From Deltaproteobacteria bacterium (lineage in GTDB: Bacteria > Desulfobacterota > Binatia > Binatales > Binataceae), in NCBI GenBank assembly GCA_027317185.1, contig DAHVFB010000007.1, positions 1,064 through 65,063 on the forward strand: 64,000 nucleotides of DNA. Direction: 5' to 3'. Below are positions 3,718 through 21,215 of this stretch, piece after piece. The notes beneath the pieces were generated by a model. That model did not search any database, had not been told where the DNA came from, and saw only the letters and a program-made list of their open reading frames with translations. The position numbers and the translations under genes are program-made. Numbering within the stretch: position 1 is the first letter of the stretch; the number at the start of each line of letters is the position of its first letter.

Positions 3718-3789
3718 CGTGAAAATCCTGTGATGCCAGCCATCGCAGGAGTCATTGGCCGCTACGAAAACGGCAGGTTGTCAGAAGGC

Positions 3790-3951
3790 GGACTCCACCA
3801 CCCCAGCTACATAAGATACGCAATACAACTTCCCTAGATCAAGACGAATTGAAAAGGTCGATATTGGTTCGGCGGGCCAGCGCCGAACCACGCTGCTGTT
3901 GCTTCCTAGTAAGATTATGCTATTGTCCGCACGCTGGTGGTGGAGTTCACC
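3790..3951. repeat. 12-bp inverted repeat (GGACTCCACCACC / GGTGGTGGAGTtC) enclosing a 10-bp perfect hairpin (TGGTTCGGCG-ggccag-CGCCGAACCA), in a lower-GC divergent intergenic region
   Basis: Read directly from the sequence. Function unknown (small RNA, MITE remnant or operator). Confidence 0.3.
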
Positions 3952-4050
3952 GTAACCGCTCTTCCTGACGGAATAGCCAATAACTCCTAAGGCAATGAAT
4001 TTGTCTTGGGAGTTTTTTTTGCTGCGTTTTGTCTGCGGAGAGGATGAAAA

Positions 4051-4779
4051 ATGGACTCCAATCGACTCGCGCCGCTTTCGTTTGCTGCAAGCTCTTCAGC
4101 TCCTTACCACAACCTTAGAAAATGGACTGCGGATTGGACCCTGACCGGCCATGATCGTAGACCGCCCCATTCGCCTGGCGTATACCCCTTATGGCGCCTG
4201 ATTGCGGGTAGAAGCGGCCGTGGAAGGCCGGGCGGTCTCTTGGTAGCATGGACACTCTGGGAGCGATGCGCCAATCGGATATGGCCTTCCAGATCGATTC
4301 CAGGTGCGCCTTTTGGCCTGCTGCGATTCCGTCCGATGCGATACTGCGGTAATCCGCTGCTATTGCCCGACGGCGCCCTTATAGTTCCTGGCGATCTGGT
4401 AGGCGAGCTTCACTGCAACAATACTGCCCTCGCCACCCTCATTGAGTTCCGTGAGATAAGCCGGCTGCGTGCGTGCCGCGCCGATCTTAACAGCCTCGGG
4501 CGCTGGCTCGGGCAAAGCGGCGAGCTTCCCACGCTCAAGGCATTCTACGGCGTAACTCTCCTCTGGTGGGCCGCTGCGAGACTGGGATTCAACGTCCGAG
4601 AGCGGCAAGCACCATTACGTAATTGGTTCGACTGGATCTTTATGGGCGGGCTTCTGTTGATTTACGCAGCCGATGGAGCTACCCGAGCAAAACTCGGAAC
4701 CACTCTGAGCCGTACACCTCGCGAAGTTTGGATTTCACGTAAAGAACTCTCGCGTGGATACGCGGACAGTGTACGGTAA
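4051..4779 (+). CDS. hypothetical protein
   Basis: ORF with a strong RBS (GGAGAGGATgaaaaATG). No recognisable domain. Confidence 0.4.
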   Translation: MDSNRLAPLSFAASSSAPYHNLRKWTADWTLTGHDRRPPHSPGVYPLWRLIAGRSGRGRPGGLLVAWTLWERCANRIWPSRSIPGAPFGLLRFRPMRYCGNPLLLPDGALIVPGDLVGELHCNNTALATLIEFREISRLRACRADLNSLGRWLGQSGELPTLKAFYGVTLLWWAAARLGFNVRERQAPLRNWFDWIFMGGLLLIYAADGATRAKLGTTLSRTPREVWISRKELSRGYADSVR

Positions 4780-4868: not shown

Positions 4869-6044
<1,176 letters not shown>

Positions 6045-6194
6045 TCGCTGGACGTGGAGGATGGCGCTTGGGTGCGAGTCTCGCGTTGGATGGAGACCGA
6101 TGAGTCGTGAACGATGAGACAAATTCTGTGTCTCTGGGAAGTATCGTTGCATAGGTCGAACGGACTGCCGAAAATCGTGCGCATGGAACTGATT

Positions 6195-6252
6195 ACGGTG
6201 ATGAGGTTCCACCGAAACCGCTCCAGGCTTGTGTGATCTGGTGAACCCTACT
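6195..6252 (+). ncRNA. fluoride riboswitch (crcB motif), copy 1
   Basis: GGUGAUGAGGUUCCACCGAAACCGCUCC..P3(CCAG/CUGG)..UGAACCCUAC matches the crcB-motif core (GGnGAUGnnGUUCnCC .. AACCGC .. CCUAC). The loop GAGGUU can form the pseudoknot with AACCCU. It sits directly upstream of DUF190-CBS and crcB. Confidence 0.75.
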
Positions 6253-6283
6253 GCTGTTGATCATGCGTAGGGAGCTTTTTTTG
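6246..6283 (+). terminator. intrinsic terminator / expression platform of riboswitch 1
   Basis: CCCTAC-15 nt-GTAGGG stem followed by TTTTTTT. The 5' arm overlaps the CCUAC pseudoknot strand of the aptamer. Confidence 0.65.
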
Positions 6284-6409: not shown

Positions 6410-7690
6410 ATGTTCACCGGAAGGGCTAAACAGATCACGATCTTTATCGGCGAAACGGATCAATACCATCACCAGGCGCTGTATATGGCGATTATCGAGA
6501 TGCTCCGGCGCGAGGGCTGCAGCGGCGCGACTGCGACTCGCGGCGTGGCGGGCTTTGGGGCCTCATCGTTGATTCACACCGCGATGATTCTTCGACTGTC
6601 CTTCGATCAGCCACTCGTGATCACAGTCGTGGACCGCCCCGAGCGGATCGATCGCGTCCTCGCTCCTCTGCGGGAAATGGCTCCGAACGCCCTGATCACG
6701 GTTCAGGAAGTGGAAGTCGTCCAATCGGGTGCTCCCTTCAAAGAGGGACTGCCCGATTTGAAAGTTTCCGAAGTGATGCGTCGTGAAGTCGCCACGGTGC
6801 ATCCCGACAGCGCAATTACCCAAGTTGTCGAATTGTTGCTGGATAAGGACTTCACGGCGGTGCCGGTGATCGACGATGAGGGCAGGGTTGTCGGGATGGT
6901 GAGCGACAACGACCTGCTGACGCGCGGCGGGATGAACGTCACGATCAGTCTGAAAAAGGCGACCGATTTGGATTATGTGCGCGAGCTTCACGAGTCTCTT
7001 GAGAACGCGAACCGCAAAGTGTCGGAAGTGATGACGCGCGAGGTGGTGACGACTACTCCCGACGCCATTCTCGGACGAGCGGCCAGACTGATGGTCGAAA
7101 AACATCTCAAGCGGCTACCGGTCGTGAACAGCGATGGAAGGCTGGTGGGCATCCTGGGCCGCCTGGATGTTTTGAACACGATTGCGGCGGTCCATCTGCC
7201 GGAGTGGCATCCCGAGGCGCATGCCAACGGCGCACAGTCTACGGTGGCCGGCGTGATGACCCGCGAAGTTCCCACCGTCCACGAAACTGCGACAGTTGAA
7301 GAAATTTTCGATCTGCTCGTTTCATCGTCGCACAAGCGGGTAGTCGTGGTGGACGACAAAAGGCATGTTGTTGGAATTGTCGCCGACTCTGATTTGATTT
7401 CGAAGGTGAGCCGTGAGAGCTGGCCGGGGATAATGGAAATCCTCATCTCCAAGGTTCCAATCGGCCGAGTCAGCGCAGAAGCGCGCAAGCACATCCAGAA
7501 GTTGCGTGCCCGCTCCGCAAAGGAACTGATGACGCGCAACGTCGTCACGGTTCGCGAGAAGATGCCCGTGGCGAGCGCCTTGGCGTTGTCTGCGGAAAAG
7601 CGGGTTAAGCGGCTGCCGGTGGTGGACGCTGAAGGCGAGCTGGTAGGAATCGTCGGACGCACGGAAATGATGCGCGCACTGCTGGCCTAA
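6410..7690 (+). CDS. DUF190 (PII-like, COG1993) domain fused to four CBS domains
   Basis: N-terminal ITIFIGETDQYHHQALYMAIIEMLRREGCSGATATRGVAGFG is DUF190-like. It is followed by two CBS pairs (repeated h..VhT..P..VVDD.G.hVGIVS..DL). Confidence 0.85.
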   Translation: MFTGRAKQITIFIGETDQYHHQALYMAIIEMLRREGCSGATATRGVAGFGASSLIHTAMILRLSFDQPLVITVVDRPERIDRVLAPLREMAPNALITVQEVEVVQSGAPFKEGLPDLKVSEVMRREVATVHPDSAITQVVELLLDKDFTAVPVIDDEGRVVGMVSDNDLLTRGGMNVTISLKKATDLDYVRELHESLENANRKVSEVMTREVVTTTPDAILGRAARLMVEKHLKRLPVVNSDGRLVGILGRLDVLNTIAAVHLPEWHPEAHANGAQSTVAGVMTREVPTVHETATVEEIFDLLVSSSHKRVVVVDDKRHVVGIVADSDLISKVSRESWPGIMEILISKVPIGRVSAEARKHIQKLRARSAKELMTRNVVTVREKMPVASALALSAEKRVKRLPVVDAEGELVGIVGRTEMMRALLA

Positions 7691-7715: not shown

Positions 7716-8090
7716 GTGCTGGGAGTTTTGTTTGTCGCGATTGGCGGGGCCATCGGGTCGGCGACTCGTTATCTGGTGGGCGGATGGTTTGCATCCCGGT
7801 TTGGCCCGTCGTTTCCGTACGGAACCTTCGTGATCAATGTGACAGGGAGCTTCATTATTGGACTTTTCCTCGCATTTGCTCAGGAGCGGGTTTCGCTCAG
7901 CCCTTATTGGCGACTGTTCTTTGCGGTGGGCGTTGTCGGAGGCTATACTACCTTTTCGACCTTCGAGTATGAGTCGGTTCGATTGCTTCAGGATGGGGAG
8001 ATGCTGCTGGGGTCAGTTTATCTGGTAGGGAGCGTTGCGATGGGCGCTATCGGCGCCGTGGCCGGAATCACGCTTGGCAGTTGGATTTGA
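7716..8090 (+). CDS. crcB: fluoride ion channel CrcB/Fluc
   Basis: 124 aa, 4-TM. Motifs GGAIGSATRY and GGYTTFSTF are typical of CrcB. Confidence 0.9.
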   Translation: MLGVLFVAIGGAIGSATRYLVGGWFASRFGPSFPYGTFVINVTGSFIIGLFLAFAQERVSLSPYWRLFFAVGVVGGYTTFSTFEYESVRLLQDGEMLLGSVYLVGSVAMGAIGAVAGITLGSWI

Positions 8091-8110: not shown

Positions 8111-8139
8111 TTGACAGTCGGACAGCGCCTGCTACACTT
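8111..8139 (+). promoter_or_regulatory. candidate sigma70 promoter (TTGACA-16-TACACT) upstream of riboswitch 2
   Basis: Hexamers read from the sequence. Weak -10. Confidence 0.25.
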
Positions 8140-8153
8140 CTATGGACAGCGTT

Positions 8154-8210
8154 GGTGATGGGGTTCACCGCCACAACCGCCCTTTCCTGAGCAGGGCTGA
8201 TAACCCCTAC
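8154..8210 (+). ncRNA. fluoride riboswitch (crcB motif), copy 2
   Basis: GGUGAUGGGGUUCACCGCCACAACCGCCC-uuuccugagc-AGGGCUGAUAACCCCUAC is a near-consensus crcB motif. P1 is GGUG/CACC, P3 is GCCCU/AGGGC, and the pseudoknot is GGGGUU/AACCCC. Confidence 0.85.
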
Positions 8211-8241
8211 CGAGGTGTACGCCGGTAGGGGTTGATTTGTT
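8204..8241 (+). terminator. intrinsic terminator / expression platform of riboswitch 2
   Basis: Perfect 9-bp stem CCCCTACCG / CGGTAGGGG with a 10-nt loop, followed by TTGATTTGTT. The 5' arm overlaps the pseudoknot strand. Confidence 0.7.
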
Positions 8242-8340
8242 CAGGTTCCCTACTTGGTCATTCGAAATCTCTCCCGATCAGCACTTTCCACGCGCTGAAG
8301 GGGAGAGATATAACGCCGCATGGAGTGAGCGTAGCGGAGG

Positions 8341-9291
8341 ATGGCGCGTTCGGTCGGGTTCAACCTGCTTCAAGTGCTGTTCGTTGTCGCGCTGGCTCCG
8401 CTGGCGTCGGGCGTGTTGTCGCGCCTGAAGGAGATCGTTCAATCGCGGCGCGGTCCCAGCATTTTTCAGCCCTATCGCGACCTTCGAAAGCTGTTCAACA
8501 AAGACGAAGTCGTTTCGGAACACGCTTCGTGGATCTTCCGGTTTACGCCGTATGTCGTGTTTGTCGCGCCGATCTTCGTGACCACGTTGATTCCGGTGCT
8601 TACGAACTATCCGCTCTTTTTCGCCTTCATGGGCGATATGCTGGGCGGTGGGTTTGTGCTCGCGCTGGGTGGGTTTTTCGCGACGCTCGCCGCCGTGGAT
8701 ACCGCTAATCCTTACGGTGCGATGGGCGCGAGCCGGACACGGATGGTCGGCTTCCTTGCAGAACCGGTCTTCATGATCGTTTTCTTTACGGTTTCGTTCG
8801 TGGCTGGTTCTACAATCCCCTACATCGTGCAGCAGCATTGGGTGACGCCGCTCACAAACTTTTTCGCGCCATCGCACGTGCTGCTGGTGATTGCGTTTAT
8901 CATGCTCATCCTCGCCGAGGCGGGCCGCATTCCGGTGGACAATCCGGCGGGCCATTTCGAACTCGCCATGATCGACGAATCGAAAAGCCTCGAGTATTCG
9001 GGTCCCGGCATGGCGCTGATGAAATGGGGCGGTCAGATGAAGCTGCTCGTGCTGATATGTATTCTGCTCAACGTGTTGGTTACACCGTGGGGACTTGCCG
9101 GCGGCCGGAGCACCGCCGAAGTCCTGCTGGCGGCGCCGCTGGTGCTGTTCAAGGTGGGGATTTTTCTACTCGTGCTGGTGGTGATTGAATCCTCGTTCGC
9201 TAAATTGCGGCTCTTTCGGGTCAGTGAGTTTCTGGGCGCTGCTTTCGTAACCTCGGTCGTCGCAATGATCACCGGGCTATTGAGCTTTTAG
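8341..9291 (+). CDS. membrane subunit of complex-I/hydrogenase-4 type (NuoH/HycD/HyfC-like)
   Basis: 316-aa polytopic protein with NuoH/HycD-family topology and conserved charged loops. Confidence 0.8.
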   Translation: MARSVGFNLLQVLFVVALAPLASGVLSRLKEIVQSRRGPSIFQPYRDLRKLFNKDEVVSEHASWIFRFTPYVVFVAPIFVTTLIPVLTNYPLFFAFMGDMLGGGFVLALGGFFATLAAVDTANPYGAMGASRTRMVGFLAEPVFMIVFFTVSFVAGSTIPYIVQQHWVTPLTNFFAPSHVLLVIAFIMLILAEAGRIPVDNPAGHFELAMIDESKSLEYSGPGMALMKWGGQMKLLVLICILLNVLVTPWGLAGGRSTAEVLLAAPLVLFKVGIFLLVLVVIESSFAKLRLFRVSEFLGAAFVTSVVAMITGLLSF

Positions 9292-9303
9292 CCGGAGAAT
9301 CAA

Positions 9304-9984
9304 GTGGCGAACTCAAACGCACTGTTGACCTCGCTGAACGGGTTGGCCGCGGGTCTGTTCCTTATGAGTTCATTCGGGCTGGCGGCAACCCGCCAGATGC
9401 AGGGGTGCCTGCGATTCTACATTACCCAGTCGATATGCCTGGTTGTGTCCGCACTATTACTCGGACTTGGTTTGCATGCTCCGGACTTGCTGGCGGTGGC
9501 CGTGCTCGACGCGGTCGTAAAGCCTATCGTGATCCCTGTGTTGCTTCGACGCACGGTACCCGAGGCGGTTTTTCGAAGACGCGAGATCGCTCAGGTGCTG
9601 AATATTCCCAGTTCGCTTCTGATCGCGCTTGCGCTGACTCTGTTGGCGTATTTCCTGAGCGGATATCTCCCGCCCGCCACGGGGAGCCTGGCAAGCATCA
9701 ATCTCCCGGTTGGCCTTGCCGGGCTATTCATCGGCGTTTACACGCTCACGGTCCGGCGGGAGGCGGTGCCTCAACTGATTGGAATCTTTGGCATCGAGAA
9801 CGGCGCTCTTCTTTGCGGCTTCGCGATTGCGTCTGGCCTGCCGCTGGTCATCGAGATGGCCTTCCCGTTCGACATGCTGATCATCGCGCTGGTGATCGGA
9901 ATTCTGACGCGGATGACGCACGAACGCGTTGGAACGACTGAAGTCGGCGGCTTCACCAGTCTTCGGGAAGGTATCGGCAAGTGA
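9304..9984 (+). CDS. small membrane subunit (HyfE / NuoK-like)
   Basis: 226 aa, about 7 TM. Position and hydropathy match HyfE-type subunits. Confidence 0.6.
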   Translation: MANSNALLTSLNGLAAGLFLMSSFGLAATRQMQGCLRFYITQSICLVVSALLLGLGLHAPDLLAVAVLDAVVKPIVIPVLLRRTVPEAVFRRREIAQVLNIPSSLLIALALTLLAYFLSGYLPPATGSLASINLPVGLAGLFIGVYTLTVRREAVPQLIGIFGIENGALLCGFAIASGLPLVIEMAFPFDMLIIALVIGILTRMTHERVGTTEVGGFTSLREGIGK

Positions 9985-11429
9985 TCCTCTTATTTATACT
10001 CGGCCTTCTGCTAATGGCCGCGTTGATTTCAGCGCTCCCGCTCGGTCGCCGTGTTGCGCCCGCTGTAACCGTTGCTACGTGTGTCGCCGTACTGGTGCTA
10101 ACGGTCGCGGCGGCGCTGCGAGTCGTGGCGGGAGAATCGGTGGTTACAATACGGAACTGGATCGCGATTGACGGACTGAGTGCGTTGATATTGCTGCTGG
10201 TGGCGACGGTGGGGAGCACAGCGGCTCTTTTTTCCTGGGGCTACATTGCTCGGGAGAAGAGTTCCCGTCATCTGCGCCGCTATTACGCGAATTACAACCT
10301 GTTTGTCTTCGCGATGCTCTCGGTGCCGATGCTGGACGAACCGAACCTGGTGTGGACCGGAGTGGAACTGACCACGATACTTTCTGTTTATTTGGTCGCA
10401 TTTGAAAATACCGGCGAAGCCCTGGAGGCGGCGTGGAAGTATTCAGTGCTCACGATCATGGGGGGAGCGATCGCTCTGCTTGGATTCCTCGCACTATACG
10501 CTGCGACGCGGGGCCGGTATGCGGAAGGGGCTTATACCTGGCGCACACTAATCGTGCTGGCGCCCGGCGTTTCGCCGCGCGTGCTCGAGACCGCGTTCGT
10601 TCTGATTCTCGTTGGGTTCGGGGCCAAGGCGGGGTTGGTTCCGTTGCATACGTGGCTGCCCGACGCGCATAGCCAGGCGCCGAGCCCGATATGCGCCCTG
10701 CTTTCCGGTATCAAGACAACCGTCATCCTGTACGTGATATTGCGCCTCATCCCAGTATTGAACTCGTCTGGAAAGATAGATGTCGACGAGTGGGCGATGG
10801 TCGTAGGATTGTTCTCGGTGGGTATCGCCGCGTTTCTGATTATTCAGGTGACTGACTATAAACGCCTGTTCGCATTCTCCACGGTCGAGCATATGGGAAT
10901 CATCCTGACCGCGGCGGGGATTGGCGGCGCCGCGGGTCATTACGGCGCCGTATATCAAATTCTCAATCACACGCTGACCAAGTCGTTTTGTTTTTTTGCG
11001 GCCGGGGCAACATTGCTCGCGGTGGACACGCGACAAATCGCGGACGTCCGGGGGCTGATACGAACCTCACCGCCGGCGGGCGTGGCCCTCCTGTTTGGGG
11101 GAATCGCGATCGCCGGCGCTCCGCCGCTCGCGGTCTTTCTGAGCGAATTTTCGATCCTGCGCTCAGGAATCGCGAAGCAACACTACGTTGCAACCGCTTT
11201 GCTCGCTGGATTCGTTATAGTCGCTTTTTTCGGCATTCTCTATCACCTTAACCGGATGGTCTTCGGGCAGCCAGACCCGGCAATCGAAAGCGCCGCTCCG
11301 ATAAGACTGCCGGTGAGTTGCGTACTGACCCTCATTCTGGCCGCGGCACCCATCATCATACTCGGGGTCTATATGCCAGAGCCGCTCCACAAGCTCCTTC
11401 TAATGGCTGCGGACGGTCTGACGAGGTGA
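9981..11429 (+). CDS. Mrp/NuoN-type antiporter-like subunit (HyfF/NuoN-like)
   Basis: WLPDAHSQAPSPICALLSGIKTT and other proton-pumping antiporter-family motifs. 482 aa. Confidence 0.85.
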   Translation: MILLFILGLLLMAALISALPLGRRVAPAVTVATCVAVLVLTVAAALRVVAGESVVTIRNWIAIDGLSALILLLVATVGSTAALFSWGYIAREKSSRHLRRYYANYNLFVFAMLSVPMLDEPNLVWTGVELTTILSVYLVAFENTGEALEAAWKYSVLTIMGGAIALLGFLALYAATRGRYAEGAYTWRTLIVLAPGVSPRVLETAFVLILVGFGAKAGLVPLHTWLPDAHSQAPSPICALLSGIKTTVILYVILRLIPVLNSSGKIDVDEWAMVVGLFSVGIAAFLIIQVTDYKRLFAFSTVEHMGIILTAAGIGGAAGHYGAVYQILNHTLTKSFCFFAAGATLLAVDTRQIADVRGLIRTSPPAGVALLFGGIAIAGAPPLAVFLSEFSILRSGIAKQHYVATALLAGFVIVAFFGILYHLNRMVFGQPDPAIESAAPIRLPVSCVLTLILAAAPIIILGVYMPEPLHKLLLMAADGLTR

Positions 11430-11432
11430 GCG

Positions 11433-13022
11433 ATGCCAGCCGAACGGAAGCAAGTGCTCGATGAGGTTGCGGCTCGTTGGAACGGCAGAGTTCAATTGAG
11501 CCCGGAAGACGGTTCGGAATCGGCTTATCGGCTGGAGTGTGAACCTGCGGAGCTATCGGAGGTTTGCAATTGGTTGTTCTCCGATCTGCATTACAGTTTC
11601 GGCGGTCTGGTAGTCGAGCAACTAACGCGGTGGGAACTGCGGTACGTATTCTATGGCGGGCCGGGAGCGGGCTGGTTGCATGTGCTGACTCATCTAGCTC
11701 CGTCGGATTATCGGGTGCCCAGCGTCAGCAGGCTCGTGCATGCGGCTGACTGGCACGAACGCGAGGTCGAGGACCTGTTCGGGCTGGTCTTCGAGGGGCA
11801 TCCGCGCCTCGGCGATTTCGTACTTCACGACGACGCCTGGCATGAGGGCGTCGCTCCGATGCGTAAGAGCTTCGATGGGCGCCAACCGGTGACGCATCGT
11901 GCGCCCGACCAGAACTGGAAGCCGCGCCAGATCGTCGAGGAGGCGGGAGCGTTCTTGATGCCGATCGGACCCATCTATGCCACCGCAACCGGGCCGGTGC
12001 ACTTTCAGCTTGAAACCGTGGGCGAAGATGTAATCCGCGTGCAGCCGCGCCTCTTCTATGCATACCGCGGGCTGGAAAAGATCGCCGAGGGGCGCCGGGC
12101 TGAGGACGTTCTACTGATAGCGGAGCGTATCAGCGCAACATCAGCATTCGCTCATTCACTCGCGGTCTGTCAGGCCGTGGAGCGTATCTGCCACATGGAG
12201 GTGCCTCCGAGAGCGCGCGCGCTAAGAATATTCGTTGCGGAGTTCGAACGCCTTCGGCATCACGTCGCGGCGATCGAGGGAATCTGTGAATCGACCGGCC
12301 TTGCGGTTGCAGCCGCCCAGGCCTCGATTCTCGAAGAGGACCTGCTGCGACTTTCCTGTGTGCTGACGGGGCATCGTTATCTCTTCGGCCTCGGAACCTT
12401 CGGTGGCTTGACGATCAACCTTGACGATTCGGCCTGCAACCGAGCCGCAGCACAGGTGCGAGAAGTGGCCGAAAAGCTCTCGCGCCTTGAGCGGATGTTG
12501 AGCATATCCAGCAGTTTTCTAGACCGACTGGAGGAGGTCGGCCACGTTTCCGCAGGCGAGGCCGGCGACTTCGGGCTGGTCGGACCGATCGCCCGCGCCT
12601 CAGGTGTCTCGCGGGATATGAGGAAGGCCCAGCCATATTCCGGCTATGACCAGATCGAGTTTGAGGTTCCCCACGAATCGGAAGGAGACGGATACGCACG
12701 GTTGCGTATGTTCTTTCGAGAGGCGGCGCAATCAGTGCGGATCATCTCGACGGTTGGCCAAGCGGTTCCTGGGGGGCAGGTTCGCGCGCCGGAAGTCAGC
12801 TTCAGGCCGGGTGCCGCGCTGGGCTGGGTCGAAGCACCGCGCGGGGCCGCGTTGCATTGGATTCGCCTCGGCGAGGACGGCGTGGTGGATCGCTACCGAA
12901 TCATCACGCCGTCATTCGCGAACTGGCATGGCTTCAGGCTCGCGGCCGAAAACTTTGCGTTTCAGGATTTTCCGATAATCCTCGCGACGTTCGCGCTCTC
13001 AGTTCACGAGAACGATCGCTAG
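11433..13022 (+). CDS. fused NuoC-NuoD-like 'large subunit' (HycE/EchE-like) lacking NiFe-binding cysteines
   Basis: N-terminal NuoC-like 150 aa plus a NuoD/[NiFe]-large-subunit fold. The L1 motif position reads RISATSAFAH and the L2 position TPSFANWH, so both Cys pairs are replaced. Confidence 0.85.
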   Translation: MPAERKQVLDEVAARWNGRVQLSPEDGSESAYRLECEPAELSEVCNWLFSDLHYSFGGLVVEQLTRWELRYVFYGGPGAGWLHVLTHLAPSDYRVPSVSRLVHAADWHEREVEDLFGLVFEGHPRLGDFVLHDDAWHEGVAPMRKSFDGRQPVTHRAPDQNWKPRQIVEEAGAFLMPIGPIYATATGPVHFQLETVGEDVIRVQPRLFYAYRGLEKIAEGRRAEDVLLIAERISATSAFAHSLAVCQAVERICHMEVPPRARALRIFVAEFERLRHHVAAIEGICESTGLAVAAAQASILEEDLLRLSCVLTGHRYLFGLGTFGGLTINLDDSACNRAAAQVREVAEKLSRLERMLSISSSFLDRLEEVGHVSAGEAGDFGLVGPIARASGVSRDMRKAQPYSGYDQIEFEVPHESEGDGYARLRMFFREAAQSVRIISTVGQAVPGGQVRAPEVSFRPGAALGWVEAPRGAALHWIRLGEDGVVDRYRIITPSFANWHGFRLAAENFAFQDFPIILATFALSVHENDR

Positions 13023-13040
13023 TAGGTACGGCTAACCATC

Positions 13041-13811
13041 ATGAGCCAATGGGTAATCAAGGGTCTCAGAACCGGCGTTAAGAGCACCCGCTACCCGCGC
13101 GCCGAGGAAACTGCGGCTGGAATTTCGCCGGGCCTGCCGACTGCCGCGACACTCCCCTTGGAAGTGGCCCAGTCACTCGTGGCGCGTTGTCCGGCCGACG
13201 CTCTTGAACTGGCTCCGGCCGGCGTGGACGTGAACCTGCGCCGATGTATTCACTGCTTCCGCTGCGTGCGTGGCACGAACAGTCCGCTCGGATGGGAACA
13301 CAGCTACGAATGGGCCACCGCAGTTTCGGGTGGCAATGATCAAAAGCGGCAGTTCGGTCCGGCGTTCGATCGATCGGTTCACATCCTCGTGGTCGATACA
13401 GGCGACTGCGGGGCGTGCCTGAACGAGGTCCGACAGCTCAACAATCCCTACTACAACATGCATCGCCTCGGCTTCTTTCTCACTCCAACGCCACGTCATG
13501 CCGATGTGTTGCTGGTAGTCGGAGCGCTGACCGACCACATGCGAGTGCCGCTGCGCAAGGCCTACGACGCGATGCCCAGCCCGAAACGGGTCGTAGCCGT
13601 TGGGGCCTGCGCGCTATCGGGAGGAATCTTTGGCCGCAGCTTTATGTGCGCAGGCGGAGTGGCCGAGCTGCTCCCGGTCGATGTCGAGGTGCCGGGCGAT
13701 CCGCCACCGCCACTCGCGATTCTGCACGGACTGTTGGTTGCGGTTGGCCGGAAACCCCCGGCCCGTTTGCATCGCGCAGTGAGCGACTCGGTGGGGAACG
13801 CGTCGGGATGA
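13041..13811 (+). CDS. NuoB/HycG-like small subunit with N-terminal ferredoxin-like CxxCxxC segment
   Basis: C-terminal HILVVDTGDCGAC .. GACALSGG .. VPGDPPPP follows the NuoB pattern, with the 4th Cys replaced by Asp. The N-terminus has CIHCFRC. Confidence 0.8.
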   Translation: MSQWVIKGLRTGVKSTRYPRAEETAAGISPGLPTAATLPLEVAQSLVARCPADALELAPAGVDVNLRRCIHCFRCVRGTNSPLGWEHSYEWATAVSGGNDQKRQFGPAFDRSVHILVVDTGDCGACLNEVRQLNNPYYNMHRLGFFLTPTPRHADVLLVVGALTDHMRVPLRKAYDAMPSPKRVVAVGACALSGGIFGRSFMCAGGVAELLPVDVEVPGDPPPPLAILHGLLVAVGRKPPARLHRAVSDSVGNASG

Positions 13812-15958
13812 CCTCCATGGGCCTGCTACTGGTCATTATCGTGGCGCTGTGCGGCGCCGGCGTGGTTTTGCCGCTGGCCATTGAAGAACGGCGAACGCCA
13901 GCGATCGTGGGCTGGTTCGGAGCGTGCGCGGCGGGCGTCTTGCTCTGCTTCAGCGGAGCCTCACTGTTTGCGGGCGCGCCGTTTCACGCGACGCTGTGGA
14001 CCATTCCATCGCTGGCGACGCTCACGCTGTCACTCGACCGGCTCTCTGCGCTGTTTCTTTTTATTTCAGGCCTGGTCCTGCTTCCCGGTTCGATTTTCGC
14101 GGCTGGCAATCTCCATAGGTACATGGGCCGTTACAGTCTTAGGGCCTTTAGCGTTCTATATTTCGCGCTCTATGCGACGCTGGTGCTGATTCCCCTGTCG
14201 GCCGACGCGGTCTCCTTTCTGATGTTGTGGGAATCGATGTCGATCCTGATCTACCTGCTGGTGAACTACGAAGACGAAATGGAAGAACACCTGCGGGCGG
14301 GATACTTGATGCTGGCGGTTGGCGAGGCCGGCACACTCCTCATCGCGCTGGCGTTCATAGTACTCGCCAATAATGGCTCGCTTGAATTCGTCGCGATGGA
14401 GGCTGGGGGAGGTGCGCTGGGCGAATACGCGCGATGGGCTGTCTTCCTGCTCGCGTTCTTCGGCTTCGGAGTCAAGGCCGGTCTCATCCCGGTTAATTTC
14501 TGGCTCCCGCAGGCGTACGCCGCGGCGCCGGATGCTTTCGTCCCGGTGCTGGCTGGAGCAACCTTGAACCTCGGTCTTTACGGAATCGTCAGAGTGAACG
14601 GTGACCTGCTGCCGGTTGCGGCGATCGGCCCCGGCCTCGTCGCGCTCATCGTCGGCAGCGTTACCGCGCTGCTCGGCATTCTCTACGCGACGACGCAGAG
14701 CGATCTCAAGACCATGCTCGCGCACAGTTCGATCGAGAATGCCGGCATTATCACAGCGGCGCTCGGCGCGGGGTTTATCTTCGTGGCCTTGGCGCATCCG
14801 TCGCTTGCGGCGATCGCGTTTGCGGCGGCCTTCTACCACATGGTGAACCATTCGATTTACAAGGCCCTGTTGTTCTTCGCGACCGGCGCGGTTGATTCGA
14901 ATACCGGAACCCGAAACATCGACCGGCTGGGAGGCTTGATAAAGGCGATGCCTCTCACCGCGTTGTTCTTTCTGGTTGGCGCACTGTCGATCGCGGCGCT
15001 GCCGCCGTTCAACGGATTCGTTAGTGAATGGCTCACGTTGCAGGCGATGCTGCAAAGCGCGGGACTTGCTTCGACTGGCGTGAAAATCGTCTTTGCGCTT
15101 TGCGGCGCGATCCTCGCCCTGACGGCGGCGCTTGCGGTGACCTGCTTCGTTAAGGCGTTCGCGATGAGTTTCCTCGGGATGCCACGGTCTGATTCGGCGG
15201 CGCAGGCCCGGTCGGCGCGAGCCTCGGCGACTATTCCGATGGCATTCCTCGCCGTGCTCTGCTTCATCCTGGGAGTGACTCCGACCTACGTCATTCCGGT
15301 GCTCGACGGAGCTATCGCGCCGATCGCGGAGCAGGCGCGCGCCGCCGACGCCCTGGTGCCACCCTTCTTTGCTGGCAACGTCCATCACGGCGAGCTGCCC
15401 GCATCCTTCGTCGCGGATTTTCACGCGCTTGGCGCGCAAGTCGGGCAGAGCGTAATGCCGGGACGTGGACTCATTGTGATGCATCGCGGCGGCGCGGCCA
15501 ATCCGGTGGTGTTCGCGATGTCCACCACGTACATGGCCGTGGTCCTGGCGCTGATGCTGCTCGCTACCTACGTCGTGTTTCGATTGATTGTCGCGCGAAG
15601 CCGCGCCGTCGAACGGCGCGCGGTCTGGGATGGTGGAATCCGACGCTTGCTGCCGGAGATGACCTACACCGGTACCGGATTCTCGAACCCGGTGCGCGTC
15701 ATCTTCGAAGCGGTATTCAGGCCCACAACCGTGGAAGACACCCGGGAGACGGTCGGCAAGCATTTCCGGGCCGCGATTCGGCGCACGCACGGCGAAAACC
15801 ATGTGCTGGACCGCTTGGTGCTCAATCCGATCGCGGACGCCGCGCTATGGGTATCAAACGGTTTTGCCCGGATGCATCATGGCTTCCTCAATGCCTACGT
15901 TCTCTACGGGCTCATCGCGCTGATTGTGGCGCTTCTGATCGCGAGGTTCTCCTCATGA
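13808..15958 (+). CDS. Mrp/NuoL-type antiporter-like subunit (HyfB/NuoL-like)
   Basis: About 717 aa polytopic protein with FWLPQAYAAAPDAFVPV and HSSIENAGII motifs. Start taken at MTSMGLL (the ATGA overlap with the upstream gene), not the long Arg-rich N-extension in the ORF track. Confidence 0.85.
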   Translation: MTSMGLLLVIIVALCGAGVVLPLAIEERRTPAIVGWFGACAAGVLLCFSGASLFAGAPFHATLWTIPSLATLTLSLDRLSALFLFISGLVLLPGSIFAAGNLHRYMGRYSLRAFSVLYFALYATLVLIPLSADAVSFLMLWESMSILIYLLVNYEDEMEEHLRAGYLMLAVGEAGTLLIALAFIVLANNGSLEFVAMEAGGGALGEYARWAVFLLAFFGFGVKAGLIPVNFWLPQAYAAAPDAFVPVLAGATLNLGLYGIVRVNGDLLPVAAIGPGLVALIVGSVTALLGILYATTQSDLKTMLAHSSIENAGIITAALGAGFIFVALAHPSLAAIAFAAAFYHMVNHSIYKALLFFATGAVDSNTGTRNIDRLGGLIKAMPLTALFFLVGALSIAALPPFNGFVSEWLTLQAMLQSAGLASTGVKIVFALCGAILALTAALAVTCFVKAFAMSFLGMPRSDSAAQARSARASATIPMAFLAVLCFILGVTPTYVIPVLDGAIAPIAEQARAADALVPPFFAGNVHHGELPASFVADFHALGAQVGQSVMPGRGLIVMHRGGAANPVVFAMSTTYMAVVLALMLLATYVVFRLIVARSRAVERRAVWDGGIRRLLPEMTYTGTGFSNPVRVIFEAVFRPTTVEDTRETVGKHFRAAIRRTHGENHVLDRLVLNPIADAALWVSNGFARMHHGFLNAYVLYGLIALIVALLIARFSS

Positions 15959-15971
15959 AGCTTGACCGGCG

Positions 15972-16961
15972 GTGCGGCTAGACTTAGCTTATGGGTACAG
16001 GTGGTGGAGTCCACCAGGAACCGCCATCCGGCCAATGACTCCTGCAGCGGGTAGAGACCCGCGGCGGGAGGACTCCTTCCGACTCTCGGGTCTCGAGACC
16101 GCTCCGACGATTGTTGATCGGAGACCGGAAGTGCTCGAGCGCCTGACAAAGAATTTCCGAGAACTCCTCAAGCAGTTCGGTGGCGCCTCGTGCTCCCTGT
16201 GCGCCGTATTGAAACGGCGGGAGGAAGAGGAAATCGAGCGAGTGCGCGCTAGCAGTGCCTCGGCCAGAGTCTTGTGCGGCCCGCATCTCGAGATGGTGCT
16301 GTTCGCGGTTGCCAGCCCGATGACAAGGGCGGGAGTGACTCGCAGTGCGATCGAATCGGTCCTCGCCGACCGATCCGATTGCGACGCGTGCTCAAGGCTC
16401 AGCCAAATCGAGCTTAGGCTTGCACGCGCGATCCGCCGTTTGGACGGCGGGATGCGCTTCAGGAAGGCGCTCGAATCGGCGCCGCTTTTCTGCCGCAAGC
16501 ATGCGGATATCGTCGCGCAACAGGATGTCGCGGTTAACTTTGCACAGGTTCAGAGGGCGAAGCTCCTCCACTTACGCGATGCGCTCGCTCAGGCCGAGTT
16601 GCGTAACGGCGCAGAGATGGAATCGCTGATATTGACGGCGCTCACCTATCTGGCCGCTCCTCTTCAGCAAGAACCGCCGCCGGTGGAAGTCCACGATTCC
16701 TCCGATTGCACGGAGAACGAGGCGGCGGAATTCGAGCGATGGGAGGAAGCACGCCAGTTCAAGCATCTGGCCGACCTCGAGAGCGAAGCGGCAGGCCTGC
16801 GCTATCGCAACGCCGTGCTTTCTGAAGAGAACCGCAGACTCAAGCTCGCCCATGTCGCTGGCGAAGCGATCCGGCGCGACCTTGAGCACGATCGAGCACA
16901 GCTCCTCGCCGCGGCGAAGGAACAGGATGCAAAACCGCTGAAGTTTTCGAGCCGACATTAA
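15972..16961 (+). CDS. hypothetical protein with two CxxC-(26-31 aa)-CxxH modules and a C-terminal coiled coil
   Basis: CSLC..CGPH and CDAC..CRKH. First gene of the overlapping-stop operon. Start codon uncertain. Confidence 0.5.
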   Translation: MRLDLAYGYRWWSPPGTAIRPMTPAAGRDPRREDSFRLSGLETAPTIVDRRPEVLERLTKNFRELLKQFGGASCSLCAVLKRREEEEIERVRASSASARVLCGPHLEMVLFAVASPMTRAGVTRSAIESVLADRSDCDACSRLSQIELRLARAIRRLDGGMRFRKALESAPLFCRKHADIVAQQDVAVNFAQVQRAKLLHLRDALAQAELRNGAEMESLILTALTYLAAPLQQEPPPVEVHDSSDCTENEAAEFERWEEARQFKHLADLESEAAGLRYRNAVLSEENRRLKLAHVAGEAIRRDLEHDRAQLLAAAKEQDAKPLKFSSRH

Positions 16962-16979
16962 AAAGAGCCAATCACTCAT

Positions 16980-17675
16980 ATGCGAATCTGCATCATTTCA
17001 GACCTGCACGCGAACCTCGAAGCTCTTTCCGCCCTGCCACGCGACTATGATGAGTTGTGGGTATTGGGTGACCTGGTGAACTATGGTCCTGATCCGGCCG
17101 AAACGATCGACTTTGTGCGATCTCACGCGTCAACTGTCATCCGCGGAAACCACGACAACGCGGTGGGATTTGGAACGAATTGTGGGTGCTCGCCTCGATT
17201 CCGCACTATGGCCGAAGCGACGCGCCAATACACGACGTCGGTCCTGAGTGCTAGAGACAAACAGTTTCTTAGGGAGCTACCGACATGCGCCTGCCGCCAG
17301 GTCGACGGGCGGATATTCTTTCTCTGCCACGCGACTCCATCGGATCTGCTCTATGAGTACCGCGCGCCCGACTCGCCGCTGTGGGCGCGGGAAGAGGAGT
17401 CCAGTTCGGGAGCGAATGTCATCCTGGCGGGACACACACATCTGCCGTTCGCGCGCGTCTTTGGCGAACGTATCGTCGCTAATCCAGGAAGCCTTGGACA
17501 ATCGAAAGCAGGAGACCCGCGCGCCCGCTACGCCGTCTGGCAGGATGACCATATTGAGCTAAAGGCCTACGAATATCCCGTCGACAAGACGGTCGAGAAA
17601 ATCTTGGCGCTTCCGTTACCCGAGGAAGTAAAGCACGACCTCGTCTGCGTGCTTCGTACGGGGACAGCGCCGTGA
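16980..17675 (+). CDS. metallophosphoesterase (calcineurin-like, YfcE/MJ0936-type)
   Basis: DLH .. GDLVNYGP .. GNHD .. GHTH motifs. Confidence 0.85.
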   Translation: MRICIISDLHANLEALSALPRDYDELWVLGDLVNYGPDPAETIDFVRSHASTVIRGNHDNAVGFGTNCGCSPRFRTMAEATRQYTTSVLSARDKQFLRELPTCACRQVDGRIFFLCHATPSDLLYEYRAPDSPLWAREEESSSGANVILAGHTHLPFARVFGERIVANPGSLGQSKAGDPRARYAVWQDDHIELKAYEYPVDKTVEKILALPLPEEVKHDLVCVLRTGTAP

Positions 17676-18667
17676 GTACCAATAGTCATCGAAACACCGC
17701 TCCGGAGCCGGCTGCGATCACGGCTGACGCCGTAAAACTAGGCGATCTGAGACATCACCTCCGATCGCTGCACGATGGAGACGGCGCGGTGATTGAGGCA
17801 ATCGGCATCGGCGCTCCAGCGATTCCGGTCCTGCGGGAACTCCTGTTTGAGCGAGATCCCAGCGGGATTTTCGAGCCGCGGATGCGTGCCGCTCAGGCGC
17901 TGGCCGCGCTCAGAGCCACGAGCGAATTGCAGGAGTTTGTCCGCGAATGGAAATCGGCTTCGGACCCAGTCGAGCGGTTTGGAGACGAAGCGGTGCTGGG
18001 AGCCGTCGCCAGATTTTTGGGCGCCACGATGGAAGAAGACGTCTATGACATCCTGATGGCGATCGGCCGAAAGTATCCGGTGCCGGGCGTTATCGAAGCC
18101 TTAGGGCGATATGGCCGTTCGGAATCGGTTTCAATGATGCTCAGAGCCCTTGCCGATGACATCAGCCGGACCGCGGCGGAACAGGCATTAAGGATCCTCG
18201 GCGAGGCGGGAGTTCCCGCGCTCATCGAGGCCGCCATGCGGCCGGTCGCGAATTTTTGGGGCAGAGAAATTCCATCCAGTGTGCTTAGGCGGCGCAGCGC
18301 GTTAATGCTGCTGCTAGAATTTGGTGTTACGCGCGATACTTGGGACCGCATCCGCAGGTTGGTATCAGACTCAGACGACGAAATTTCGGTCCGTGCATGC
18401 GCAATTGGATTGACGGCGGGCATTCGTGCAGACCAGCGCGACTGCGCGTGGCGGATGTTGGAGTTACTGCGCGGGGTCGCGTGGCCGCTTCATCAGGAAA
18501 TCGAAAACTGCCTGATAGACAATTTCGCAATCGCTCGGGAGTTCGTCGATCAGGCTATCAAAGGACCGACGGACGACATCGCGGATGACTTCGCGCGCGC
18601 CCGATTCAAGCGATCACTCCGTCGGATCGCGGCAAGGGCGTTAACCAGACAGGAGCCCGGGAGTTGA
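17672..18667 (+). CDS. HEAT-repeat (PBS-lyase-like) protein
   Basis: Repeated approx. 30-aa helical repeats with (A/V)(A/R)xALG motifs. Overlaps its neighbours by 4 nt. Confidence 0.65.
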   Translation: MSTNSHRNTAPEPAAITADAVKLGDLRHHLRSLHDGDGAVIEAIGIGAPAIPVLRELLFERDPSGIFEPRMRAAQALAALRATSELQEFVREWKSASDPVERFGDEAVLGAVARFLGATMEEDVYDILMAIGRKYPVPGVIEALGRYGRSESVSMMLRALADDISRTAAEQALRILGEAGVPALIEAAMRPVANFWGREIPSSVLRRRSALMLLLEFGVTRDTWDRIRRLVSDSDDEISVRACAIGLTAGIRADQRDCAWRMLELLRGVAWPLHQEIENCLIDNFAIAREFVDQAIKGPTDDIADDFARARFKRSLRRIAARALTRQEPGS

Positions 18668-21165
18668 CCTCGATGCCGGAAGCAGCGCCGCAGCTCTCCA
18701 ATATCGCGGGTGACGCACTCCGCCACTATGACCATCTCAAACTCGAGATTGCGGCGATCGGGCAAGCGGCGATGCTTCAGTGCGCGAAGGATAAGGACGA
18801 GGAAGGCGAACGCGCTTTCCAGCGGTTGCTGGCGCGATTGGCGGAGGACCGCTTCAACCTTGCTGTGGTGGGTCCTTTCAGCCGGGGTAAGAGCAGCCTG
18901 ATGAACGCAATTCTCGGCTTCGATGGTTTGCCGACCGGCCTTCTTCCGCACACTTCCGTTATCACGACGGTCAGTTATGGACCACACGAACGAGTTCTGG
19001 TTCGCTGCGAGGGGTGGTCGCTTCCCCAGGAGATTCGACTGGATGGGCTCGCGGAGTACGTTACTGAACGCGGAAATCCGGGAAATCGGCGGCGGGTGAT
19101 GCAGGCGGAGATCGAACTGCCCGCTGAGATTCTCCGCCACGGCCTCCATTTCATCGATACGCCCGGTGTTGGTTCCGCGATCGTTGCAAACACCGAGACA
19201 ACGGACCGATTCCTCCCGGAGCTTGATGCGGCGATATTCGTCTCCAGTTTCGATTTTCCGCTCAGCGAGATCGATATCGAGTTTTTCCGAAAGGTTCGCG
19301 GGGCCGTCGGCGTCGTGTTCTTGGTGCTGAACAAACTTGATCTGGTCTCGGAGTCAGAGGCAGAAGAAGTAGTGAGATTCGTCCGCGAACGGCTCGACCG
19401 TGAACTGGGTATTGGGCGCTACGCGCTTTTCGCGGTTTCAGCCAAGCGCGGGTTAGAGGCGAGACTGCATGGAGACTCGAACGCTCTGTCCCAGTCGGGG
19501 TTGACCGAATTGGAAGCGGCGCTGGCGGCGTTCATGGCCGGCGATAAGACGCGCCAGTTGGCCGTGCGCGTGATGGACCGCCTCGTAACCCTGCTGCAAC
19601 GCGAGGTCACGCATGGCGGGTTCTCACTTGATCCAAAGCGGTCGCCTGGGCAGGTCTCCCAAGCCCTCGCCGGGTTCGATGAAAAGACGGCCGTCCTCAA
19701 AGCGCGGCGCGCGGAGCTCGTGAACCGCCTTGAAACGCTTGGCAATGATGCGTTGCGTGCCGTTGAGCGTCGTCTCGACTCCGCGTTCACGAACCTCAAG
19801 CAAAGCGCAGCTCATAAATTCACGCCGGACTTTCTCGCCGGTCGAATATTCTCCAGGCCGAATGCCTTCGATGCGTTCGCGCGCAATGTGCCGGCGTTTT
19901 GTGAGCGCGCTCTCACGCGCGAGTTACGAGTTTACGAGGCAGCCCTGAATGAGCATTTGGACCGGAGCGCCGGTCCGGTACGCTCGGAAATCCTTGCGCT
20001 ACCCGACGAACTCTTCGATATCGCGACGAATGGTAACGGAGGCGCTCGCGAGTTATCAGAGCTCTCCGCACAAGAGCGCGAAGCCGCACCACCATCGGTG
20101 GAAATCGCAGGGATCGCACGCGTCGAGTGGAGACCGCGGCTGCCGTGGTGGATATACCTGGCGCCACTGCGCTGGTCTTCGGCGGCGATGAAAAGAACAT
20201 TTGCCGTTGCGCTCGGCGAGTTGCTCGCGCAGTACCGATCCCGCATCGATGCGTCGATCCGCATCGACATGAACGAATATGCGGAGAAACTGGGCCGCGA
20301 GATTGAAAAAACAATCGACGGTCGAGCGGCTCGCGTCAGGAAATTACTCGCGTCGGGAGGTTTCGCACAGAATCGCAAGGTGTTCGAAGCGCTGCTGGAT
20401 CGGGCCAGAGATCTGCGTGGACAATTTGAAGATAAGGGAGACTGCCGATCGCGGTCTGAGGAGGGCGACCTCGGTGGCTCCGACGCAGTCGCTGCAAGTT
20501 CCGTGGCTTCCGTCGGCAGTGCGCATGGGTGTCCCGTCTGTCGTGCAGTCATCCGGACAGTTTTCGATTACCTGAGCAAGCTGCAATATGAATTGAGCAT
20601 CGACGCCGACGCTCAACACGAACACGCCGAAAGCGGCGGCTTCTGTTCAGTACACACGTGGATTTACTCCAGTATGACCTCGCCGGTAGCAATCTCGCGG
20701 GCCTATCCGCCACTGCTTGACTCGCTTGCCACGCGGCTGAAACGTGCCGCGCGTGATGCGGTCTCGGTCGAAGAACTGAACCGGAAAATCCGCGATCTAT
20801 CGCCTTCGCCGGAGAGCTGTAGAGTCTGCGCGGTCGCGCATCACGCGACCGATCAAGCGGTCACGGATATCGTCCGGATTCTCGACCCAGACGGACGCAG
20901 CGAGGCGCCGACCTTATGCTTGCCTCACTTGGCGATTGCACTTCAGCTCGGATCAGATTTGAAGAGCGCCCATCTGCTATCCACACAATGTGCGCGCGCT
21001 CTGCTCCGGGATGCCGATGACATGCGCCATCACGCTCTGAAGCACGACGCGATCCGGCGAGGCCTGATGACGACGGACGAGCGTGATGCGCATCAGGCCG
21101 GCCTCAGAAGATTGGCCGGCAACATGCTGCTGACATTGCCACCCCGTGGTGATGATCGGCTTTGA
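18664..21165 (+). CDS. bacterial dynamin-like GTPase with C-terminal double Cys3His module
   Basis: G1 GPFSRGKSSLMNAILG, G3 FIDTPGVGS, G4 LNKLD. C-terminal CPVC..CSVH and CRVC..CLPH. Confidence 0.8.
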   Translation: MTSMPEAAPQLSNIAGDALRHYDHLKLEIAAIGQAAMLQCAKDKDEEGERAFQRLLARLAEDRFNLAVVGPFSRGKSSLMNAILGFDGLPTGLLPHTSVITTVSYGPHERVLVRCEGWSLPQEIRLDGLAEYVTERGNPGNRRRVMQAEIELPAEILRHGLHFIDTPGVGSAIVANTETTDRFLPELDAAIFVSSFDFPLSEIDIEFFRKVRGAVGVVFLVLNKLDLVSESEAEEVVRFVRERLDRELGIGRYALFAVSAKRGLEARLHGDSNALSQSGLTELEAALAAFMAGDKTRQLAVRVMDRLVTLLQREVTHGGFSLDPKRSPGQVSQALAGFDEKTAVLKARRAELVNRLETLGNDALRAVERRLDSAFTNLKQSAAHKFTPDFLAGRIFSRPNAFDAFARNVPAFCERALTRELRVYEAALNEHLDRSAGPVRSEILALPDELFDIATNGNGGARELSELSAQEREAAPPSVEIAGIARVEWRPRLPWWIYLAPLRWSSAAMKRTFAVALGELLAQYRSRIDASIRIDMNEYAEKLGREIEKTIDGRAARVRKLLASGGFAQNRKVFEALLDRARDLRGQFEDKGDCRSRSEEGDLGGSDAVAASSVASVGSAHGCPVCRAVIRTVFDYLSKLQYELSIDADAQHEHAESGGFCSVHTWIYSSMTSPVAISRAYPPLLDSLATRLKRAARDAVSVEELNRKIRDLSPSPESCRVCAVAHHATDQAVTDIVRILDPDGRSEAPTLCLPHLAIALQLGSDLKSAHLLSTQCARALLRDADDMRHHALKHDAIRRGLMTTDERDAHQAGLRRLAGNMLLTLPPRGDDRL

Positions 21166-21215
21166 CCCGCTGCCGGTGAGGACAACCCACAAGGGATGAG
21201 CGAGGAAATTGAAGA

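Follow-up and report, generated by a model that had tools for sequence, protein, structure and literature searches.

A fluoride riboswitch is predicted to control a hydrogenase-4-like, Ehr-type operon lacking nickel-iron ligands in a Binataceae bacterium and its relatives

The DNA analysed here is a stretch of 64,000 nucleotides (the window) from a Binataceae bacterium (assembly GCA_027317185.1, contig DAHVFB010000007.1, positions 1,064 to 65,063), and it carries a six-gene operon at positions 8341-15958 that is preceded by a fluoride riboswitch aptamer. The operon encodes, in this order, a NuoH-like subunit (EhrH), a HyfE-like subunit (EhrE), a first antiporter-like subunit (EhrN1), a NuoCD-like subunit (EhrCD), a NuoB-like subunit (EhrB) and a second antiporter-like subunit (EhrL2), whose identities were assigned by Pfam, NCBIfam and PDB sequence searches (Table 1). 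Two of the gene junctions are 4-nucleotide overlaps (9981-9984 and 13808-13811), the second of which is an ATGA wherein the start of ehrL2 overlaps the ehrB stop codon, and the other gaps are 3-18 nucleotides long. An earlier note, made by a model from the sequence of the window, had predicted a six-gene, hydrogenase-4-like composition. Pfam supports this composition, but the note had placed the two antiporter-like genes next to each other, whereas the second is the last gene of the operon.

The membrane arm of the encoded complex is HyfB/HyfE/HyfF-like, as in hydrogenase 4. EhrH shows 68-92% identity across phyla. EhrE matches the NCBIfam model for the hydrogenase 4 membrane subunit at 3e-16, which is under the curated cut-off, and no NCBIfam equivalog cut-off is reached by the operon (HyfB, 506 versus 667 bits; HyfF, 324 versus 610 bits; HyfE, 60 versus 136 bits). 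The best solved relatives of EhrCD, EhrB and EhrL2 are HycE, HycG and HycC of Escherichia coli Hyc/Hyf (7Z0S), and HycE (7z0s_E) is the top PDB match of EhrCD at 1.8e-64. With six genes, the operon does not match the complex I core set of 11-14 subunits, which includes NuoA, NuoI, NuoJ and NuoE/F/G.

The aptamer in the operon leader was located by the earlier note as a crcB motif at 8154-8210, and this interval falls inside an RF01734 match whose score exceeds the Rfam threshold. Its pseudoknot is formed by GGGG and CCCC, which is a compensatory replacement of the consensus GGAG and CUCC. The distance from the end of the aptamer at 8216 to the start codon at 8341 is 125 nucleotides, close to the 130 or so given previously. 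The terminator-type expression platform that had been proposed is also present, and comprises a 12-bp hairpin with TTGATTTGTT located directly 3' of it, wherein the U-tract after the hairpin reads UUGAUUUGUU. In the predicted fold of the leader (whole-leader z = -3.2), the 5' arm of the terminator stem is the 3' pseudoknot strand of the aptamer, CCCCUACCG. Thus, formation of the aptamer and formation of the terminator would be mutually exclusive, which is the classic ON design.

The promoter elements TTGAC and TGnTAnACT are kept in 11-12 related leaders, and conservation across 12 related leaders extends to both promoter elements (-35 and extended -10), to the aptamer and to the terminator stem with its U-rich tail. 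Judged by these features, the leader is a fluoride ON-riboswitch with a terminator platform, and its response to fluoride is predicted. Platforms of this terminator-type ON design have already been described as typical in the fluoride literature. Transcription would start from the promoter near 8111-8138. Without fluoride, the aptamer 3' strand CCCCUACCG would pair with CGGUAGGGG, the terminator would form, and transcription would stop near 8240. With fluoride, the same 3' strand would be engaged in the aptamer pseudoknot, which would let RNA polymerase read into the operon.

Two further elements are located between the terminator and the start codon. The sequence TTCCCTAC at 8246-8253, some 12-20 nucleotides past the terminator, is invariant in 12/12 aligned Binataceae-type leaders. 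It repeats the 3' strand of the aptamer pseudoknot, and base pairing with the terminator 3' arm GGTAGGG is possible. Farther downstream is a strong hairpin at 8267-8310 (AUCUCUCCC...GGGGAGAGAU), whose sequence is poorly conserved among relatives and whose stem may persist.

Table 1. Positions of the fluoride-related RNA elements and genes in the window.
Feature	Position	Strand	Length (amino acids)	Evidence or detail
Promoter-like site	8111..8138	+		TTGACA-16 nucleotides-TACACT, TG before -10
Fluoride riboswitch aptamer, operon leader	8145..8216	+		RF01734, 47.3 bits versus gathering score 34, E 5.3e-10 (whole window)
Intrinsic-terminator-type expression platform	8201..8241	+		12-bp stem 8201-8212/8223-8234, then U-rich tail; fold
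EhrH, NuoH/HycD/HyfC-like membrane subunit	8341..9291	+	316	Pfam NADHdh 4e-32
EhrE, HyfE-like small membrane subunit, NuoK-like C-terminal half	9304..9984	+	226	Weak Pfam Oxidored_q2
EhrN1, antiporter-like subunit (HyfF/MbhH/NuoM-like)	9981..11429	+	482	Pfam, PDB and NCBIfam matches
EhrCD, fused NuoC-NuoD/HycE-like large subunit without nickel-iron ligands	11433..13022	+	529	Pfam
EhrB, NuoB/HycG-like small subunit, N-terminal CP...CxxCxxC ferredoxin-type motif	13041..13811	+	256	Pfam, PDB
EhrL2, HyfB/HycC-like antiporter-like subunit	13808..15958	+	716	Top PDB match HycC, 7z0s_C, 3.6e-55
crcB (Fluc fluoride channel), directly upstream of operon leader	7716..8090	+		Pfam CRCB 9.5e-30
DUF190 protein with four CBS domains, predicted to be co-transcribed with crcB	6410..7690	+		Pfam
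Second fluoride aptamer, 33 nucleotides past operon stop codon	15991..16051	+		RF01734, 42.0 bits versus 34
Weak fluoride-aptamer-like element before the DUF190-CBS gene and crcB	6188..6257	+		22.2 bits, E 0.035; may be degenerate
Sub-threshold fluoride aptamer before YkoP-domain gene 4051-4779 and metK 4869-6044	3927..3996	+		32.0 bits versus 34
Sub-threshold fluoride aptamer before AAA_16 protein 1957-3717(-) and enolase 503-1828(-)	3739..3811	-		30.2 bits

There are 496 relatives of the operon in a genome scan that used one genome per species, and the best 80 loci (56-80% identity) were studied. These 80 loci span more than ten phyla, and their sources include Binataceae, Verrucomicrobiota, Planctomycetota, Nitrospira, NC10, Acidobacteriota, Beta- and Gammaproteobacteria, Actinomycetes, Dadabacteria and Desulfobacterota. 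Carriers in culture include Nitrospira japonica and Desulfobacterota strain M19 (L018 and L048). Homologues of the large subunit, up to 93% identical, are labelled 'formate hydrogenlyase subunit 5' by JGI and as NuoC of Candidatus Binataceae by NCBI. The gene order H-E-N1-CD-B-L2 is invariant in the 80 loci.

A fluoride aptamer is found upstream of the operon in all 72 of the loci that include the operon 5' end. It is located no more than 600 nucleotides from ehrH in 61 of these, and in ten others a single gene on the same strand (crcB, or a gene for enolase, a dynamin-like GTPase or a cytidylate-kinase-like protein) stands between the aptamer and the operon. The remaining locus (L010) carries a divergent aptamer copy that was detected with filters off only. 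Similarly, four deeper subclades (37-43% identity) have the same gene order and an aptamer, whose neighbours there include genes for MutS-like proteins, chorismate mutase, Usp, H+-pyrophosphatase and enolase. Comparative genomics is therefore strongly supportive of riboswitch control of the operon, as the earlier note had proposed. The arrangement that the note had treated as special to the window is instead the rule for the whole subfamily, and has already been reported under the name formate hydrogen lyase.

The Rfam model finds 16 fluoride aptamers in seven sampled loci. A locus-derived aptamer model was built from these, with the structure entered by hand since MAFFT misplaced P3, and it identifies 160 aptamers in the window and the 80 loci. 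There is strong covariation among 143 aptamers from the window and related loci: 93.5% of cells are paired versus 80.9% in shuffles, and none of 500 shuffles comes up to this figure. Pairing amounts to 99.2% in the pseudoknot helix, with compensatory changes in 4/5 pairs, and P1 is 99.3% paired; double changes occur in 12/13 aptamer pairs.

The nearest other groups among representatives at 50% identity are true [NiFe] (nickel-iron) hydrogenases and a second clade that lacks the corresponding cysteines and carries the motifs SGDxSFAH and NLSYSGNDL. This sister Ehr clade encodes the same six subunits in the order L2-H-E-N1-CD-B (23 full loci), at 24-49% identity to the window subfamily. No fluoride aptamer is found with the locus-derived model in 80 metagenome loci of the sister clade (696 kb), nor with the Rfam model in nine full loci (139 kb). 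Thus, the riboswitch is a property of the subfamily represented in the window and not of Ehr complexes generally. The contigs of the nearest relatives that retain the NiFe site (P0150, P0153 and P0165) are too short to include operon leaders.

Like the published Ehr complexes, the window operon encodes NuoL-like, NuoH-like, small membrane, NuoM/N-like, NuoD-like (without CxxC) and NuoB-like subunits. The NuoL/HyfB-like gene, however, is last in the window and in the 80 loci, whereas it is first in the published ehrABCDLS order and in the sister clade. The window subfamily is also set apart by motif and by identity (29-37%) from the SGD/NLSYSGNDL clade, and its signatures are A(T/S)SAFAH and LSVAExDR in place of SGDxSFAH and NLSYSGNDL. 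By these measures, the window genes form a distinct, predicted non-hydrogenase Ehr subfamily.

Alignment of EhrCD to HycE indicates what has become of the NiFe positions. HycE C241 and C244 correspond to S234 and S237, and the cysteines of the C-terminal DPCxxC correspond to S523 and E526, such that CGIC is replaced by SATS and DPCYSCTDR by ALSVHENDR (the window motifs are RISATSAFAH and LSVHENDR). Among 81 family members, A/S, T/S, S (80/81) and E (81/81) occupy these four positions. In addition, EhrCD terminates at R529, the position of the HycE processing Arg, without a C-terminal extension for a maturation protease. On this alignment the NiFe site is lost from the large subunit, and the module is thus Ehr-type, as the earlier note had labelled it. 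Its description of the module as cysteine-less is apt for the four NiFe ligands of the large subunit but not for the module, since the small subunit keeps seven conserved iron-sulfur (Fe-S) cysteines.

These features bear directly on the idea that the operon encodes a genuine formate hydrogenlyase or [NiFe]-hydrogenase of the Hyc/Hyf type, which is hardly credible despite the JGI label of its homologues and the identity of its best solved relatives. Other residues stand in place of the four NiFe cysteines in the window and in almost the whole family, the large subunit ends at the processing Arg, and no NCBIfam equivalog cut-off is met. Domain searches of the operon and about 10 kb around it find no HycB, HycF, FdhH/FdhF or hyp genes, although fdhF and hyp, which are unlinked in E. 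coli, were not searched for with E. coli queries. In comparison with E. coli Hyc/Hyf, the window complex is without the NiFe site and the processing peptide, and no HycB, HycF or FdhH is seen in or near its operon. In comparison with HycG, EhrB carries a fused half-ferredoxin motif, and its fourth cluster ligand is not Cys.

At the sequence level, identity as a formate hydrogenlyase or [NiFe]-hydrogenase is ruled out.

The small subunit has retained much of its presumptive cofactor-binding equipment. EhrB residues C123, C126 and C190 are three of the four proximal-cluster ligands, and they and the N-terminal C50, C69, C72 and C75 are each kept in at least 76 of 79 sequences. EhrB has CxxC and not the tandem CC of the N2 cluster, and most members are without the fourth Cys: position 220 is Asn in 43 sequences, Gln in 11, Cys in 11 and His in 5, and is Asp in the window. 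The N-terminal Fe-S assignment follows from the presence of a conserved motif. In the NuoCD-like subunit, many of the charged residues are likewise invariant. The seven conserved Fe-S cysteines argue for electron transfer by the complex and not for a bare antiporter.

In relatives that retain the NiFe site, the small subunit either carries a fused, fuller ferredoxin (Fer4) domain or is encoded after a separate Fer4 protein (L170:3279-3989 and L171:4133-4950). These arrangements suggest that the half-ferredoxin motif in the N-terminal part of EhrB may be the remnant of a HycF-like subunit.

Both antiporter-like subunits conserve the channel residues TM5 Glu, TM7 Lys and TM12 Lys, in which TM denotes a transmembrane helix (E129, K216 and K334 in EhrN1; E142, K223 and K352 in EhrL2). 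The same residues are conserved in Mbh/Mbs of Pyrococcus (6CFW, 6U8Y) and in complex I, which also resemble the window complex in placing an Fe-S-containing NuoB/NuoD-type module on NuoH-like and Mrp-type antiporter-like subunits. The conserved Glu and Lys residues make an ion-pumping role in fluoride stress plausible. Unlike those systems, the window complex has far fewer subunits, is without an input module for ferredoxin or for reduced nicotinamide adenine dinucleotide (NADH), and lacks both the ligands for H+ or polysulfide chemistry and the quinone ligands Tyr87 and His38.

The reading that we favour, at a probability of about 60%, is that this six-gene, Hyf-like and NiFe-less complex is a fluoride-induced, redox-driven (Fe-S-dependent) pump for H+ or Na+ under the control of a fluoride ON-riboswitch. 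Electron transfer, ion pumping and the physiological role are what we infer from the cofactor and channel residues and from the riboswitch. Hydrogen fluoride (HF) would diffuse in and acidify the cytoplasm, and Fluc, which is encoded next door, would release F- only at the cost of membrane potential, so that the cycle of HF entry and F- exit would act as an uncoupler. Fluoride also blocks enolase and other phosphoryl-transfer enzymes and would thereby curb the supply of adenosine triphosphate (ATP). Electrons might pass from a soluble donor through two small-subunit clusters to an acceptor and so drive H+ or Na+ export, and such an ATP-independent pump would restore the pH gradient and the membrane potential. 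The literature provides the physiological premises, in that the proton-motive force is needed for fluoride to be exported by Fluc or CLC-F, and that enolase, and with it the supply of ATP, is inhibited by fluoride (PMC11139923).

Several observations weigh against this reading. No electron-input module is encoded in the six-gene operon. The electron acceptor is also in question, because EhrCD lacks both the NiFe cysteines and the complex I quinone ligands (on alignment, Nqo4 Tyr87 corresponds to Ala/Gly and His38 to Thr). The variable fourth ligand makes the type of the proximal cluster uncertain, and the N-terminal 112 residues of EhrB have weak PDB matches only, to the NuoG N4-type and FixX-type CxxCxxC motifs (E 0.09-0.5; about 0.1-0.2 for the ferredoxin-type motif). 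The conserved channel residues would fit a secondary antiporter equally well. Finally, the U-tract of the terminator is interrupted (UUGAUUUGUU).

Some of these same observations favour an alternative in which the complex works as a secondary cation/proton antiporter of an Mrp-like kind, redox-silent and induced by fluoride for pH and Na+ homeostasis, with a NuoCD/NuoB cap that is only a remnant of structural or regulatory use. MrpA/MrpD and MbhH are similar to both antiporter-like subunits, no catalytic site can be recognised now that NiFe and quinone ligands are absent, and the operon has no electron-input subunit. In addition, Na+/H+ antiporters are common behind fluoride riboswitches, being the second commonest class of genes associated with them (PMC11139923). 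A dead cap is nevertheless hard to square with seven Fe-S cysteines that are kept so widely across phyla, or with the invariant charged residues of the NuoCD-like subunit. True Mrp antiporters (MrpA-G) have no such cap, whereas all 80 loci have NuoCD-like and NuoB-like genes as integral parts of the operon. We therefore regard a redox-silent antiporter as unlikely, yet as an option to be taken seriously.

The favoured pump could also be imagined to run in the opposite direction, with proton-motive force being spent to make a low-potential reductant such as reduced ferredoxin under fluoride stress. Ech- and Rnf-type enzymes are reversible, and the Fe-S motifs are conserved as this would require. 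However, draining the proton-motive force would oppose export by Fluc and CLC-F, and no recurring ferredoxin-dependent enzyme is present in the neighbourhoods of the 80 loci. Reverse operation is thus very doubtful.

A different possibility is direct handling of fluoride by the complex. F-, HF or a metal fluoride might bind in the former NiFe pocket (Ser/Thr, Glu526, His241 and Arg232) or at the open iron of the three-cysteine cluster, such that the complex senses fluoride or expels it as a primary pump. The coupling to the aptamer is without exception in the subfamily and absent from the sister Ehr clade, the signature LSVAExDR places an invariant Glu at the old active site, and the fourth proximal-cluster ligand is non-Cys in most members. 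This proposal is pure inference, though: no known fluoride-binding protein motif is present, a dedicated exporter (crcB) is already encoded alongside, and the variability of position 220 argues against a precise ligand site. We consider direct handling quite improbable. A broader claim, that the permuted NiFe-less Ehr subfamily is a dedicated and horizontally spread energy-coupling complex for fluoride defence (of which direct handling would be the bolder version), is one that we advance tentatively, at somewhat less than even odds.

The surroundings of the operon in the window are also rich in candidate fluoride-responsive elements. The operon is part of a predicted fluoride island with about five switches, comprising two strong aptamers and three weaker ones. 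The weaker elements were found by a relaxed Rfam search and are all under the gathering score of 34. The second aptamer, the three weaker ones and crcB had been missed by the earlier note. The element at 6188-6257 is syntenic with an aptamer in a related locus (L001:4776-4845) that scores 54 bits. A marginal match to the locus-derived model is also present at 391-460 on the minus strand.

The unit behind the second aptamer (15991-22937) encodes a CxxC-rich protein (16131-16961) with no family match, a metallophosphoesterase, a HEAT-repeat protein, a dynamin-like GTPase (18664-21165), an MFS transporter and another HEAT protein. It is syntenic in at least seven Binataceae-type loci (L001, L004, L005, L007, L008, L010 and L012). 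A weak promoter-like sequence, TTGACC-17-TAGCTT, is located at 15962-15990, ahead of the second aptamer.

Genes up to about 25 kb have a GC content at third codon positions (GC3) of 0.62-0.73 and an overall GC content of 0.57-0.61, versus 0.76-0.87 and 0.62-0.68 in the rest of the window. The lower values of the fluoride island are consistent with horizontal acquisition. No tRNA or integrase is seen at the island border. Similarly, there is no sign of plasmid carriage, as a tblastn search against plasmids returned distant matches only (<35% identity), which are true hydrogenases or NuoCD.

Across the 80 loci, crcB is a neighbour in 27 and enolase in 30. Dynamin-like GTPase genes recur as well, either between the aptamer and the operon or with an aptamer of their own, in Actinomycetes-type and other loci (L027:4808-6819, L044:4929-6835, L077:4902-6796 and L164:1691-3620). 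By gene context, bacterial dynamin-like proteins are recurrent members of the predicted fluoride regulon beside the Ehr complex, a link not found in the literature searched. In a deeper subclade, the operon is divergent to a pair of MutS_V-domain genes with a minus-strand fluoride aptamer of their own (L161:351-3436 and L163:1183-2709), a pairing that agrees with the old 'mutS' association of the crcB motif.

The pairing of this riboswitch with these genes is already known from reports of 2010-2012, in which the genes bear the misleading name 'formate hydrogen lyase'. Such genes are listed with the crcB motif in Weinberg et al. 2010 (PMC2864571), and Baker et al. 2012, as cited in PMC11139923, also links them to the fluoride riboswitch. 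The earlier note had given this literature link correctly. In a 2024 review, formate hydrogen lyase is counted as one of the commonest enzymes associated with the riboswitch, and its presence is put down to the oxidation of formate (PMC11139923). The genes so named are associated with the same riboswitch class and almost certainly belong to the same gene family, but the name misfits the window family, which is without NiFe ligands and, as far as the operon and its surroundings show, without formate dehydrogenase and HycB/HycF.

The available parts of the 2010 and 2012 crcB-motif papers neither delimit the subfamily nor mention a universal coupling. A reinterpretation of the fluoride-linked 'formate hydrogen lyase' genes as Ehr was not found in the literature searched, in which the 2012 gene list is represented second-hand and a paper on Cupriavidus, which had seemed to be an exception, proved irrelevant. 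Conversely, the Ehr complexes (ehrABCDLS; Marreiros et al. 2013) are called unknown in function as described in the accessible text of PMC6349859 and PMC10284858, and fluoride is not mentioned in that text. What appears to have gone unrecognised is that the fluoride-linked genes constitute a distinct non-hydrogenase Ehr subfamily that is defined by its riboswitch.

Ehr complexes are widespread and are related to complex I as well as to energy-converting hydrogenases, and their function has been described as unknown (PMC10284858, PMC6349859). This observation is joined here with the listing of 'formate hydrogen lyase' in the fluoride field, in that the fluoride-linked genes are a distinct Ehr subfamily that cannot encode a hydrogenase and every member examined follows a fluoride aptamer. 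An orphan respiratory-type complex thereby gains a testable inducer, sodium fluoride (NaF), and a testable phenotype at acid pH, namely fluoride tolerance, pH gradient and membrane potential. The association suggests that energising the membrane belongs, beside export, to the core of fluoride defence. If the broader claim of a dedicated fluoride-defence complex is true, obligate control by a fluoride riboswitch would provide the first physiological role for any Ehr complex, and the 'formate hydrogen lyase' of the fluoride field would be an ion pump that makes up for the uncoupling which HF/F- cycling brings about.

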